A stretch of 53,040 nucleotides of DNA from Escherichia phage PO103-1, in sequence record NC_079175.1. The stretch is one strand, 5' to 3'. Shown in pieces: positions 20,195 to 24,383 of the stretch; position 1 is the stretch's first letter, and each line of letters begins with the position of its first letter. The notes beneath the pieces are model-generated. The model was not told the origin of the DNA. It made no database searches and saw only the letters and a list, made by a program, of their open reading frames with translations. Position numbers and translations under genes: made by a program.

Positions 20195-21202
20195 TCAGAT
20201 GCCGGAGTTGATGGAGATTGCTGCCGGATACATCGCTTGGAAGCCAGCGAAACGACCACGACCAGGAACTTCATAAACCAGGCCATGAAGCTGTACCGGT
20301 TGCCAGGTCAGCGGCAGAGGTTCACGCAGACGGAAAGTGCGGTTGCCCATTGCATTGCGGCAAACAACAACGAAGCAATCAGAACCAGCGTCGCCGTGAC
20401 CTTTGATTGCGTTCAGACCCTTGATTTTATCGCGGGAGTTGATGAACTGGTTGTTGTCAATGAAGAACTGACCAATCGTCTTGTCAGACTGCTCAGAACG
20501 TGCAGTATTGAAGATGTACTGCTCATGCTCGACAGGCATCCAGATTTCGTCCGGGCGCATGATTTTCAGAGTAGAAGCATACATTGCAGACACAGCAGTG
20601 GTTAGGTCGGCAATAACTTCGGTCGGGGTCTTCTCGGCCCACTTGGTAGAACCACCAGCACCAGCAGCAACAGTTGCTTTGGTAATGTCTGGGTTTTCGA
20701 AGAAGCCAACAAAGCCGTTAGCTTTATCACCGTACCATGCAGCAGAGTTAACATACTGCTCGTAACCACGAATAGCAGCATTCGCTTTACGAGTTTCCAG
20801 CGGGAGGCCAGTAACAGCAGCAGACGCTACTTCGTCGATATCGTAGTCGAATGCAGTACCAACTGATTTAACAGGGATGCTGTATTCTTTACCAGAAATG
20901 CTGGACTTCGGCAGGTCGGTTGCACGGGCATTAATTACCTGAGCTTTACCAACATGGTTGTAAGAACGGTAGGTCAGAGTGTTTACGCCAGCGCCACCAG
21001 TGGTGTCCACACCGAAAGCAGCACGCGCTTCCAGTTCTGGATACAGGGTGTCATAAGTTTGAGCTTCAATGAACTCAAGCTGGCGTTGAAAGAATACTGC
21101 ATCGTCGTCATTCAGGACAACAGTGCCAGAATCCTGAATACGGGTGATAGCGTCGTTCAGTTCAAATTCAGAACCGTCCGCCAGTTTAATCATCTTAGGC
21201 AT
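20195..21202 (-). CDS. Major capsid protein
   Basis: About 335 aa, after scaffold/decoration genes and flanked by hairpins; tracked ORF starts at TTG 21235, first ATG at 21202 (MPKMIKLADG). Confidence 0.55.
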   Translation of the reverse strand: MPKMIKLADGSEFELNDAITRIQDSGTVVLNDDDAVFFQRQLEFIEAQTYDTLYPELEARAAFGVDTTGGAGVNTLTYRSYNHVGKAQVINARATDLPKSSISGKEYSIPVKSVGTAFDYDIDEVASAAVTGLPLETRKANAAIRGYEQYVNSAAWYGDKANGFVGFFENPDITKATVAAGAGGSTKWAEKTPTEVIADLTTAVSAMYASTLKIMRPDEIWMPVEHEQYIFNTARSEQSDKTIGQFFIDNNQFINSRDKIKGLNAIKGHGDAGSDCFVVVCRNAMGNRTFRLREPLPLTWQPVQLHGLVYEVPGRGRFAGFQAMYPAAISINSGI

Positions 21203-21257: not shown

Positions 21258-21563
21258 TTAAGCCTTCGGCGTAATGGTAATTTCTTTGGTCGCAGTTACG
21301 CTAGAGGTTGTTTTGTTTGTTGCCTTAATTGTAGCAGAAGTCTCTGTAGTCGTCTCATTCAAGACAGTCACAGTGCCGTTTGCCGCCACAGAAACACCAG
21401 TCACAGGAGGTGTAACAGCGAAGTTATAATCTGTTGCTGTAGAGTTCTCAAACTTGAACAGCTTGTCTACAGTTACAGTGGCATCAGTAGAAGACGCATC
21501 AGCCGTTACAACCCCAGCTACAGCAGATACTGTAGGAGCTGGAGGTGGCGTTACGGCTTTGGG
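21258..21563 (-). CDS. Putative -1 frameshift extension encoding an Ig-like domain
   Basis: About 100-codon stop-free frame with no ATG; slippery C_CCA_AAG two codons before the stop of 21551..22024; translation is Thr/Val/Ala-rich beta-strand-like. Confidence 0.45.
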   Translation of the reverse strand, partial: PKAVTPPPAPTVSAVAGVVTADASSTDATVTVDKLFKFENSTATDYNFAVTPPVTGVSVAANGTVTVLNETTTETSATIKATNKTTSSVTATKEITITPKA

Positions 21564-22024
21564 ACTACGTTAATCATGACCGGGACAACATCGCCAGCGG
21601 AAGCCGGATAACGCAGGGCAGTCAGGTTGGTTGCTTTAGTATACCCAGCACCAACACCGCCAAATTGACCAGTGGCAGATACGCCAATGTCTTTATCGGT
21701 GATTGCAGTTACCAGTTTGACCATGATTGGGCCAGACAGCATAACACCCAGAGGCCAGCCAACTTTGATTGCAACAGTGCCGTCACCAGGACGAGTGGCG
21801 GATTCGATGTTAATCTGGCGCATAGTAATGCCCAGAACAGTGCCATCAGAACCAATACCAGGTTTAACCTGATTAGAGGCTGTACCTTGAACAACAGCCA
21901 GACCAAAGTTTGCCATTTCTTCTTCGGCAACGTAGGTCAAGCGCTGGGAGTTGGTGGTAGCCAGGCCATATTGTTCACCTGCATATGCTTCACCAGTATT
22001 AATAGACCAATCTTGCTTTGGCAT
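21551..22024 (-). CDS. Head protein (putative decoration/capsid-associated)
   Basis: 157-aa ORF between scaffold-like and capsid genes; carries the slippery site at its 3' end. Confidence 0.5.
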   Translation of the reverse strand: MPKQDWSINTGEAYAGEQYGLATTNSQRLTYVAEEEMANFGLAVVQGTASNQVKPGIGSDGTVLGITMRQINIESATRPGDGTVAIKVGWPLGVMLSGPIMVKLVTAITDKDIGVSATGQFGGVGAGYTKATNLTALRYPASAGDVVPVMINVVPKP

Positions 22025-22033
22025 TGTCTTACC

Positions 22034-23098
22034 TTATAAAGAGTTGAAGCGTTCTAAACGACGTTTGTTAGCTTCTTCGGAAATAGAAACTTTAGGTTTA
22101 CGAGCTTCTGAATCTTTCTTAGCAGAGAATTGCATAGACTGATTCAGGGCATCTCCCAAAGTAATGGAATCGCAATCTTCAAGGGCTGCATCGAAACGGG
22201 CGGAGATATAGTCTTCGCTCTTATCGCTGAAATCCTTGTCATGCAATTTATTAACTACAGCCAACTTAATTTCTGCATCGGTCTTGCCGGAGAAATCAAG
22301 GTTGGAGAACTCGTCGCCAAGACGGGCCACATCAACAAGCAATGCTGTACGAGCAACTACACGTTTGTCTACCTCAGCCTGAATAGCTTCATCGGACAGT
22401 CGTGCAGTTTCTGCATCAGCAAGTTTCTGTTCAAGGACACTAATCTTGTCAAGCGCTGCATCACGCTCTGCTTCAACAACGTCAAAGGTTGCCTTATCAA
22501 CAATGGCAATCTCTTCACCAGAGTCACCAATGCGGGTAGTCTGAGCACGACCACGAACAACAATTGCAGCATGGTTAGGGATAATGCGAACTTTATCGAA
22601 GTCGGCTTCATCATCTTCTGATACAGCCAGTTCAGCATTATGGCCCAAGGAGATTTGGTCAACACCAGAATCAACTAATCGAATAGCTTGCTCGTCATTC
22701 AAAACGATTGATGCAGCCAAGAAAGAACCGTCTGCAACTGGACGCCCTTCGATGAACCCTTTCTGGAGTTCTTTGTTGTTCTTGATGTTAACATCATTTT
22801 TCGGATGGCCGATAGTAACCGGAATTGAGCGACAACCTTCAATGGTTGCTTCGTCAAATAATACTTCCGGCTTGGTACGAACACGGCAAATAGATTCTGG
22901 GTCCAGATGTTTTGCGATTTCACCAAGTTCTTTTGCTTTATACAGCATGATGCCAGTACGAGCGATGGTGCATTCTGCAATCATTTCGCCAGAGTCACGT
23001 AAACGACGGGTCGTCAAAGTAGCCTTGTCGTTCAACAAAACTACTTCATTCACGGTATCTTCGTCGTTAAGCTGAACCAGGTTTTGGTTTTGCTTCAC
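22034..23098 (-). CDS. Head scaffold / prohead protease-like protein
   Basis: C-terminal half charged and coiled-coil-like; tracked start 23272 overlaps the portal by about 200 nt, so a GTG at 23098 (AAGGG upstream) or ATG 22984 is more likely. Confidence 0.45.
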   Translation of the reverse strand: MKQNQNLVQLNDEDTVNEVVLLNDKATLTTRRLRDSGEMIAECTIARTGIMLYKAKELGEIAKHLDPESICRVRTKPEVLFDEATIEGCRSIPVTIGHPKNDVNIKNNKELQKGFIEGRPVADGSFLAASIVLNDEQAIRLVDSGVDQISLGHNAELAVSEDDEADFDKVRIIPNHAAIVVRGRAQTTRIGDSGEEIAIVDKATFDVVEAERDAALDKISVLEQKLADAETARLSDEAIQAEVDKRVVARTALLVDVARLGDEFSNLDFSGKTDAEIKLAVVNKLHDKDFSDKSEDYISARFDAALEDCDSITLGDALNQSMQFSAKKDSEARKPKVSISEEANKRRLERFNSL

Positions 23099-24383
23099 TT
23101 GCGTTACCCTTTTGGATGTTAGGAGGATTAGGATTTGGTTTGCCAAGGTCGCAAGTCCCGAACACGCCCGAATGGAACATGACTTCGTTTGCAACTTCGG
23201 TAGTAATAGTACCGTTGTTAACCAGCAGGTCAACAGCAAATGCCAAATCTTTAGCTCGCTTCGCTTTCTCAACGTTGGATTCAGGGAAGATGTCTAGCCA
23301 TTCGTAGCTATACTCTTCAATGCCAAAGTGCGCTTGGACAATCTTGTCTACCACATCTAAACGAGGGTCGAACACAGAAGTCTGCAAGCCTGTCAACAAG
23401 TCGATATAGTTTACGAGGTCAGATTCGCCCGTAGCATTCATACCGTCTGGAGATGCAGAAAGGAAACGTGTAGCCGGAATACCAACTGCGGCAGCAACTA
23501 TCTTCAAGTATTCCCAAATCAAATCTTTCACACCAGACAGTGCAATTGACTTGGTGTCATACTTCTCAGTATTGTCGAGAATTAAGACATTATAAATACT
23601 CTTTGCCAGCTTCATAAGTTTGAAGCGCTTCATCACAGCAGCTTCACCTTCCGGTGATGTAAGCAGAGATTGTAAGCCTTCGACAGTTACCACATCAATG
23701 GTGGCTTCTTGGGCGAGGCTGGCGGCAGCAGCAGCAGTTGTGTAGAATTGGTCAATCGTTTTCAGCAGTGGAATAAGTACCGAATCGGAATACCACATGT
23801 TGCGTTGGAATTCGAACAGCGGTAGTTCAGTACCCTCGAACCGAAGGAAACGAGTGTAGTGGATATAGCCGGGATACCCAGCCAAAGTATAATACTCTGG
23901 CAAACCATAGTGAGGACTCAAAGGGTCCAGAACCATAGTCCCTGCGGCAAATAAGCGTGAGCGGTCAATAACTCTCATGGATTTAATACATCCAGTCTTC
24001 AAGTTATCCAGTCGCAATGGTGTATCAAGTTTGCCCGTACCTTTCAGGTCGAGCAGAACAAATGAAGTACCATACAATCTGGCCCATTGATATGCCTCAC
24101 GGAACAGCTTACGAATACGAAGTTTCTTATCCGCTTTGCGTCCTTCTTCACTATCAATATGTCGCCACTTACGCGTCATGTCTTGAGGAATGACGGTACA
24201 CACTTTCTGTGCAACCCAATCCTCACGGAAGCGGTTCATAAGTTCGCGATAGTTCGCGTTCTTGTTTGAGAAAGTCCACTGGTTAAAAGTGGACTTATCT
24301 GCCTGACCGCCCAACCCCGTTACAAGGTTTTCTAACCCATCTGCAACTTTAACAGAAAGATTGTTTTTCTTCTTGGAAGTCAT
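23067..24383 (-). CDS. Portal protein
   Basis: 438-aa ORF immediately downstream of the large terminase. Confidence 0.55.
   Translation of the reverse strand: MTSKKKNNLSVKVADGLENLVTGLGGQADKSTFNQWTFSNKNANYRELMNRFREDWVAQKVCTVIPQDMTRKWRHIDSEEGRKADKKLRIRKLFREAYQWARLYGTSFVLLDLKGTGKLDTPLRLDNLKTGCIKSMRVIDRSRLFAAGTMVLDPLSPHYGLPEYYTLAGYPGYIHYTRFLRFEGTELPLFEFQRNMWYSDSVLIPLLKTIDQFYTTAAAAASLAQEATIDVVTVEGLQSLLTSPEGEAAVMKRFKLMKLAKSIYNVLILDNTEKYDTKSIALSGVKDLIWEYLKIVAAAVGIPATRFLSASPDGMNATGESDLVNYIDLLTGLQTSVFDPRLDVVDKIVQAHFGIEEYSYEWLDIFPESNVEKAKRAKDLAFAVDLLVNNGTITTEVANEVMFHSGVFGTCDLGKPNPNPPNIQKGNASEAKPKPGSA

Follow-up and report, generated by a model that had tools for sequence, protein, structure and literature searches.

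Why does a gene in the head module of Escherichia phage PO103-1 end just where an open frame of about a hundred codons begins, and why does that frame lack an ATG? The gene lies on the minus strand of sequence record NC_079175.1, which was analysed over its full 53,040 nucleotides (nt; hereafter "the window", essentially the whole phage genome), and its product of 157 amino acids (aa) is, by profile match and modelled fold, a capsid cement, or decoration, protein. The last codons of the gene hold a slippery heptamer, C_CCA_AAG, and a ribosome slipping back one base at this point would add a proline-rich linker and an immunoglobulin-like (Ig-like) domain to the cement protein. Programmed -1 ribosomal frameshifting, yielding a minor cement-Ig protein of 255 aa, is very probably the explanation on the sequence evidence. 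An initial annotation of the window had proposed a frameshift of this kind, and the shift site, the coding selection behind it, the predicted fold of the added domain and the conservation of the whole arrangement among relatives all support that proposal.

The end of the cement gene

How closely can the point of a frame change be located? The elements that bear on this question are the following.

21551-22024, minus strand: predicted capsid cement (decoration) protein gene, 0 frame, 157 aa, 16.2 kDa
21551-21553, minus strand: 0-frame stop codon TAA, one codon past the heptamer
21557-21563, minus strand: slippery heptamer C_CCA_AAG, in the X_XXY_YYZ register as read from the sequence; re-pairing would go from CCA to CCC in the P site and from AAG to AAA in the A site
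21570-21572, minus strand: TAA that closes the -1 frame upstream, three codons upstream of CCC
21258-21556, minus strand: -1-frame extension AVTPPPAPT...ITITPKA, 99 codons plus the TAA at 21258-21260

The 157-aa open reading frame (ORF) ends AAC GTA GTC CCA AAG CCG TAA, and direct reading confirms what the initial annotation had stated, that the gene closes with GTC CCA AAG CCG TAA and that C_CCA_AAG stands two codons before the stop. The -1 frame had been described there as free of stops for about 100 codons, without an ATG, closed by a TAA at about 21258, and rich in Thr, Val and Ala; it is open for 98 codons beyond the 0-frame stop, holds no ATG and ends where predicted, while the translation is as quoted, with Thr, Val, Ala and Ser together making up 62% of the residues of the extension. 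This frame opens just 5 codons ahead of the 0-frame stop. Since it is bounded by its own TAA upstream and by the 0-frame TAA downstream, the change of frame must fall within the 18 nt between the two, and the heptamer is the sole slippery motif inside that stretch.

Could the heptamer be there by coincidence? In-frame heptamers of the X_XXY_YYZ pattern occur 14 times in the 8,950 codons of the 20 long ORFs of the window, and the site in the cement gene is the only CCCAAAG. The first C of the heptamer is supplied by GTC, the rarest Val codon in the window (11% of Val codons). On these counts, the arrangement is beyond chance. For E. coli, a published review counts C_CCA_AAG as a highly shift-prone motif (PMC5009743). 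Two further accounts of the junction were rejected: a shift into the +1 frame, or a shifty stop at CCG_TAA, since that frame is open for only 17 codons, and a sequencing error, because the identical arrangement is found in dozens of independent assemblies.

Coding selection in the -1 frame

Where does translation of the -1 frame begin? Codon positions were compared in 9 Carltongylesvirus-type genomes, in an ungapped alignment that runs from CCC to the stop (102 codons). Variable columns number 35, 29 and 77 at the first, second and third codon positions, respectively, and the same bias is present from the outset, with 2, 1 and 5 in the first 13 codons and 6, 4 and 19 in the first 30. Between the window and phage ST32, the -1 frame has 20 synonymous and 6 non-synonymous codon differences, against 5 and 22 or 1 and 26 in the other two frames, and synonymous differences outnumber non-synonymous ones in 6 of the 8 pairwise comparisons, in the -1 frame alone. 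By this substitution pattern, coding selection acts on the -1 frame from the shift site on, that is, upstream of every candidate start.

Such selection is hard to reconcile with a decaying remnant, in which an ancestral in-frame cement-Ig fusion would have been broken by the insertion or deletion of one nucleotide and its downstream part left silent. Some relatives that lack the extension do carry in-frame tails that resemble the linker, and these could be read in favor of such a history. Dead sequence, on the other hand, would gather stops and indels, but more than 25 independent genomes from five genera, with cement proteins 55-98% identical, all carry the -1 ORF unbroken. Phages flopper and JL1 moreover have two tandem copies of the extension without loss of frame, and in other relatives different Ig modules, likewise intact, stand in its place in the -1 frame. 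A silent remnant is thus extremely improbable.

A more serious competitor is a separate small gene, begun at a GTG or TTG or by reinitiation after the cement TAA, whose product would be a free Ig-like protein. The extension has indeed been annotated separately in several phages (ST32 gp56, Y2 gp67, the "Ig protein" of BSBP01 and Faunus gp52), GTG recurs at extension codons 60 and 66 in many relatives, and one metagenomic locus, L036, has an ATG seven codons past the stop. The annotated starts differ, however, where genomes are almost identical, so that product lengths range from 45 to 90 aa, and the paper on ST32 gives no Shine-Dalgarno sequence for ORF56. In the window, the earliest GTG or TTG of the extension is codon 55; ATG is absent from all 21 loci with a window-type or Loessnervirus-type extension, and the positions of GTG and TTG codons among these are inconsistent. 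Coding selection and amino-acid conservation both set in at the junction, ahead of any candidate start, and, since the first beta-strand of the modelled domain lies at residue 11, a start at codon 55, 60 or 66 would yield about half a domain. Nor would a free Ig domain have any evident means of attachment to the capsid, and a separate gene leaves unexplained why the nucleotides CCCAAAG are conserved even where the neighboring residue changes. For these reasons, separate initiation is unlikely as a general explanation of the locus; by its sequence, L036 is the sole case in which it may apply.

The state of the public records can be understood in the same light. All 16 of the 16 database homologues of the extension are N-terminally truncated ORF calls. 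The stretch is left empty in the records of PP101, PM1, SNUABM27, Navette and Orgeat, other GenBank and RefSeq records carry fragments of 45-90 aa called from differing GTG or TTG codons, and ribosomal slippage is marked at this locus in none of the 21 annotated GenBank/RefSeq Chaseviridae records examined. The initial annotation had named homologues with the extension as an ORF of its own as one of the observations that would speak against a frameshift. Such ORFs are present as annotations, but they are truncated calls with inconsistent GTG or TTG starts and do not testify to independent genes.

The cement protein and its predicted Ig-like extension

What would the two parts of the predicted fusion be? 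For the 157-aa protein, the Pfam family PF22758 (Phage_cement, which includes E217 gp24 and Pam3 gp6) gives 61.3 bits against a cut-off of 27, and the match spans protein residues 4-152 and profile positions 4-146 of 146. PHROG 563 matches the same protein with an E value of 3e-27. No chain in the PDB was matched by sequence, and searches with the protein and with its profile gave nothing useful there. An AlphaFold2 (AF2) model of the protein, with a predicted local distance difference test score (pLDDT) of 83.1, has as its top Foldseek match the Pam3 capsid chain 8hdt_G (E 4.6e-6; TM-score normalised by query length, TMq, 0.70). Cement or decoration chains of T1, FCWL1, HFTV1, XM1 and TW1 and the base of the phi29 head fibre gp8.5 follow as further fold matches. 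The position of the gene, between those for the protease/scaffold and the major capsid protein, also fits the PF22758 cement proteins. According to profile and model, then, the 157-aa gene encodes a capsid cement (decoration) protein, and its earlier assignment as a head protein is borne out by the Phage_cement match and the cement fold. The orthologue in phage 4HA13, AC4HA13_0057 (16,478 Da), was found in CsCl-purified virions with 100% coverage by mass spectrometry (MS) (PMC9699118, Table S2), which is indirect evidence for a place on the capsid surface; no Chaseviridae capsid structure was found.

The extension itself falls into two parts.

21531-21557, minus strand: Pro-rich linker AVTPPPAPT between the cement and Ig-like parts; its first codon, GCC, begins on the last base of the heptamer
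21270-21533, minus strand: predicted Ig-like beta-sandwich domain of nine strands (model residues 11-98)

The amino acids of the linker are conserved across genera while third codon positions vary, and in the AF2 model the linker is unstructured (residues 1-10). The cement and Ig halves were modelled separately. From an alignment of 15 sequences, AF2 predicts the extension as a nine-strand beta-sandwich with a pLDDT of 90.9. Among PDB structures, Foldseek ranks highest the Ig-like domains of pb6, the tail tube protein of T5 (E 1.3e-4), and of gp8, a capsid protein of phi29, with Rib and invasin domains next; the Foldseek probability is 1.00 for all four, with TMq about 0.6. The extension is also matched by PHROG 13745, "Ig domain containing protein", with an E value of 9e-8. 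The initial annotation had likened the extension to bacterial Ig-like domains. This likeness stands as far as the modelled fold and PHROG 13745 are concerned, but a Pfam search with the window extension (E values up to 1) gave no match to Big_2 (PF02368) or to any other Ig family, the only match being Rpf1_C at 15.8 bits, which is under the cut-off. The extension is thus Ig-like by predicted fold and by PHROG 13745 only.

Together the two parts would make a trans-frame product of 255 aa and 26.05 kDa. Two peptides, AVTPPPAPTVSAVAGVVTADASSTDATVTVDK and YPASAGDVVPVMINVVPK, are predicted to be specific to it. The latter ends at Lys and cannot be yielded by the 0-frame product, in which the Lys-Pro at that point resists trypsin.

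Conservation of the shift site

How far is the arrangement shared? In Carltongylesvirus, the genus-level group to which the closest relatives of the window belong, the site reads GTC CCA AAG, then CCG or TCG, then TAA. It is GGC CCA AAG CCG TAA in Suwonvirus PP101 and PM1 and in Faunusvirus, and ATC CCA AAG CCG TAA in Sabourvirus 4HA13. Among the Loessnervirus phages, Y2, Navette, Orgeat and SSEM1 have GCC CCA AAG followed directly by TAA or TAG, SNUABM27 has CTC CCA AAG TAG, and EaPF9 has CTC CCA AAG CCG TAA. The residue before the proline thus varies (V, G, I, A, L or F), but the codons that encode it, GTC, GGC, ATC, GCC, CTC and TTC, all end in C. Since the C is kept while the residue changes, selection acts here on the nucleotide sequence and not on the protein. 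The conservation of the heptamer in relatives, one of the checks proposed by the initial annotation, is therefore found to hold: CCCAAAG is present in five genera, and site and extension occur together.

Variant sites are found in Proteus phage Myduc (G_GCA_AAG TAA) and in several metagenomic loci, namely L032 (G_TTA_AAG TAA), L033 (G_GTA_AAG GCG TAA), L034 (A_GTA_AAG CCG TAA), L035 (C_CCA_AAA TAA) and L036 (C_CCA_AAG CTT CCA TAG). In all extension-bearing loci examined, from the five named genera and the metagenomic contigs, the -1 frame holds the extension, and an in-frame NNN_AAG or AAA precedes it. The 0-frame stop follows the site by 0-2 codons in these relatives, and the -1 frame opens from 0 to 31 codons before that stop. 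Conversely, the metagenomic loci L027, L029, L030, L031 and L037 have neither site nor extension, and their cement proteins end differently; the Nefertitivirinae phages Spp001, pAh6-C and VPs20 likewise lack both. The gap between the cement and capsid genes is 15-90 nt in these eight site-less relatives, and 20-90 nt in the five metagenomic ones among them.

A search with the fused product as query gave 87 homologues, none of which is an in-frame cement-Ig fusion at the sensitivity of that search (the longest is 177 aa). Most of them end in PK plus zero or one residue. At the same sensitivity, the Ig module was not found in other protein contexts.

A few metagenomic cement homologues (P0069, P0081, P0004, P0040 and P0062; 163-172 aa) carry a short Ala/Pro-rich tail in the 0 frame. 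The extension is absent for P0004 and P0081, whose loci were read, and for P0040. Tails of extension-less relatives, such as ...LPKAAAAPSA, ...FTKVAAPVEP and ...FSKGAATPGE, resemble the trans-frame junction PKAVTPPPAP, and they may have been left behind when a module was lost, or may go back to an ancestor in which linker and cement gene shared one frame.

A proposed mechanism for the shift

How would the longer protein be made? In the proposed sequence of events, a ribosome that reaches C_CCA_AAG has its P-site tRNA-Pro paired with CCA and its A-site tRNA-Lys paired with AAG. In a fraction of ribosomes, the two tRNAs would slip one base back in tandem, to CCC and AAA, and these ribosomes would bypass the TAA one codon on and read GCC GTA ACG and so forth for 99 further codons. 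Two products would result with their first 156 residues in common, the major one being the 157-aa cement protein and the minor one the 255-aa form with its linker and Ig-like domain. We infer that slippage takes place in the cement mRNA and that the long form enters virions. By analogy with other phages, both forms would be taken up into the capsid via their common cement domain, so that some cement positions display an Ig-like domain outward, and the domain might serve in weak adhesion to carbohydrate or mucin-like surfaces, as has been proposed for other phage Ig-like domains.

The same outcome, two products in a fixed ratio, could be reached if RNA polymerase, and not the ribosome, slipped on the C3A3 run and added one base to some of the mRNAs, and the two mechanisms are formally indistinguishable by sequence alone. 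Polymerases slip, however, on long homopolymer runs, typically of at least 7-9 A or T, and the longest run at the site is three bases. The conserved register of the heptamer and the retention of A_AAG with other P-site codons, on the other hand, fit tRNA re-pairing. A transcriptional origin of the shift is accordingly very improbable.

Is there an RNA structure that might stimulate the shift? One candidate was predicted in the window.

21501-21558, minus strand: long, imperfect hairpin, predicted to begin within the heptamer, with a 7-bp core at 21518-21535

A 124-nt stretch folds at -39.9 kcal/mol with a z score of -3.08, and 2 of 200 shuffled sequences fold as well. Several observations on this structure and on the site itself weigh against ribosomal frameshifting. 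The long stem is present only in the window and in phage Ecp_YSF and not in the other Carltongylesvirus phages, so that this hairpin is not conserved. Neither per-sequence folding nor RNAalifold gave a conserved stimulatory structure at the usual spacing of 5-9 nt; in the RNAalifold consensus, all that is left is a hairpin of 7 bp at a distance of 21 nt downstream, which is without covariation support (covariation term +0.22). No upstream element like a Shine-Dalgarno sequence was seen in the site sequences of the window and its relatives. At the non-canonical P-site codons (G_GCA_AAG in Myduc, and G_GTA_AAG, A_GTA_AAG and G_TTA_AAG), only the slip in the A site is clearly favorable, and the ATG that follows the 0-frame stop by seven codons in L036 counts on the same side. 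As for the protein, no proteomic mention of a 255-aa form was found in the literature searched, and the MS analysis of 4HA13 virions, which used a database of annotated ORFs and reported proteins with coverage of at least 50%, lists the 157-aa protein only (PMC9699118).

How far do these points reduce the case? In E. coli, many A_AAG-type sites have stimulatory elements, but such sites do not strictly require them. The stop codon 0-2 codons downstream may itself contribute to shifting. With the confined geometry of the junction, the coding selection that starts at it and the joint occurrence of site and extension on the other side of the balance, programmed -1 frameshifting keeps the high likelihood given to it at the outset.

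Exchange of modules at the junction

Why would the same junction be kept while the sequence beyond it changes? The module of the window is rich in Thr, Val and Ala. A module of Ig_2/Ig_3/I-set type is found in L032-L034 and in Orgeat (above the Pfam cut-offs in L033), a third type in SNUABM27, a module with a weak Ig match in Myduc, and two tandem I-set-like domains in L035. L036, from metagenome SRR14520603, has at 1977-2663 a -1 extension of 222 codons, with a module of 224 residues, that is of a differing kind and looks Ig-like only at its C-terminal end. In flopper (L003, 2032-2625) and JL1 (L018, 1571-2125), the stretch is about 282 nt longer and holds tandem copies of the window-type Ig domain, both in the -1 frame (192 codons) with a second linker, PPAPTVSAV, between them.

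The limits of these exchanges are sharp. Y2 (L012) and Orgeat (L025) share 82% homology up to nt 1976, within the cement stop at 1975-1977, and none across the extension; homology returns 3 bases before the capsid ATG, at 96.6%. Similarly, EaPF9 (L023) and SNUABM27 (L022) are 95% identical up to 1968 and 98.8% identical again from 15 nt before the capsid ATG. The break falls at the cement stop codon or a few bases earlier, 1 to 3 nt from the shift site. Because homology is lost at the junction and regained at the capsid gene, the Ig module is a cassette, with the shift site as its limit on one side and the capsid gene on the other.

It is possible, if on balance somewhat doubtful, that the junction serves as a fixed socket for swappable surface modules, in which the P-site codon and the distance to the stop tune occupancy and recoding holds display below full occupancy. 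The A_AAG site would have been kept throughout Cleopatravirinae while at least four unrelated types of Ig-like module, in one or two copies, were exchanged behind it, and the different P-site codons (CCA, GCA, GTA and TTA), together with the stop distance, may set the share of cement subunits that bear a module. A trimeric cement lattice might not tolerate full occupancy by modules. If occupancy does have to stay below full, this would account for the lack of a single in-frame fusion among the 87 homologues.

Genomic setting

To what kind of phage does the locus belong? All long ORFs of the window lie on the minus strand, and there are no tRNA genes. A megablast search with the region returned 48 phage records, the top one being Escherichia phage Ecp_YSF at 97.8% identity and the remaining matches belonging to the group of phiEcoM-GJ1, ST32 and flopper (Chaseviridae, Cleopatravirinae, Carltongylesvirus). 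The source phage is thus a phiEcoM-GJ1-like member of Chaseviridae. One record, PP952070.1, "Staphylococcus phage Pel53" with Staphylococcus hyicus as host, is 89.6% identical to the region over its full length; a Gram-positive host is unexpected given such close kinship, and the entry may reflect a mislabelled host or a contaminant.

On the minus strand, the order of genes is portal, DUF2213 protease/scaffold, the 157-aa cement gene, a stretch of about 350 nt, and major capsid.

23067-24383, minus strand: portal gene
22034-23098, minus strand: DUF2213 protease/scaffold gene
20195-21202, minus strand: major capsid protein gene (Pfam PF09950, E 1e-48), which starts 55 nt past the TAA of the extension

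Elsewhere in the window, a second -1 frameshift is likely in an ORF of 152 aa that lies between the genes for the tail tube and the tape measure (15875-16509, minus strand). This ORF presumably encodes the tail assembly chaperone. It has an in-frame T_TTT_TTC at codon 119 (about 16147-16153), just before which a -1 frame opens that runs for about 93 codons to a TAA at 15875-15877 and overlaps the tape-measure ATG at 15882. As read from the letters, the site looks like the canonical G/GT-type chaperone frameshift.

Comparison with known systems

What would follow from a frameshift in this gene? A corrected, joined coding sequence would mend the annotation of a structural gene throughout the subfamily, where about 300 nt are now left blank or filled with arbitrary "hypothetical" or "Ig domain" fragments. 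Phages of this kind are under development against E. coli, Erwinia, Pectobacterium and Yersinia, and a variable surface adhesin may affect their retention in mucus or on plant surfaces. The relatives also offer a natural series, with one junction and varied P-site codons, stop distances and modules, for the study of frameshift efficiency and capsid occupancy, and the junction would be a ready-made site for low-copy display on the capsid.

The locus probably belongs to a known class, that of Ig-like domains put on phage structural proteins by programmed frameshifting, and the heptamer that it probably uses had earlier been recognised as shifty. Frameshifting (-1 in T3) is the source of the Ig-like extensions of the T3 coat protein and of proteins in other phages, and the frameshift-appended Ig-like domains described by Fraser et al. 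(2006) seem to move between genomes by non-homologous recombination (PMC5009743). The cassette swaps in Chaseviridae match this promiscuity. In T3 gene 10 (10A/10B), as predicted here, a -1 frameshift yields an Ig-like C-terminal extension, but there it is the major capsid protein that is extended, whereas in PO103-1, a myovirus of a different family, it would be a separate cement protein. T3 uses the same heptamer as the cement gene. In Lactobacillus phage A2 and Listeria phages A118, A500 and PSA, a C-terminal Ig-like domain is likewise added to a virion protein via programmed frameshifting. These are major capsid or tail proteins of siphoviruses, however, and the shifts are -1 or +1, whereas the Chaseviridae have one fixed -1 junction on the cement protein, kept subfamily-wide while the module changes. 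No description of a frameshift in the cement gene of Chaseviridae was found in the literature searched.

The cement part has its own set of relatives. Pam3 gp6, E217 gp24, the cement proteins of T1, FCWL1, XM1 and TW1, and the base of phi29 gp8.5 have the same fold as the 157-aa part. The solved chains are of 118-166 residues (about 280 in phi29 gp8.5) with identities of 15-20%, and no Ig extension or frameshift was seen among these matches. In phi29 gp8.5, a similar base domain bears an outward fibre, which provides a precedent for a surface appendage on the cement fold. T4 Hoc, T5 pb10 and the Ig-like decoration proteins of N4 also place Ig-like domains on the capsid surface, and adhesion has been proposed as their role. 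They are, however, encoded by separate, conventional genes and bind the centres of hexamers through capsid-binding domains of their own, whereas the Ig-like domain of PO103-1 would be anchored via a recoded cement protein. What is new here is the use of a Phage_cement protein as the carrier, the conservation of the arrangement across Cleopatravirinae, and a fixed junction with swappable modules. Frameshift-appended Ig domains, previously a feature of major capsid and tail proteins, would thereby extend to a cement, or decoration, protein.

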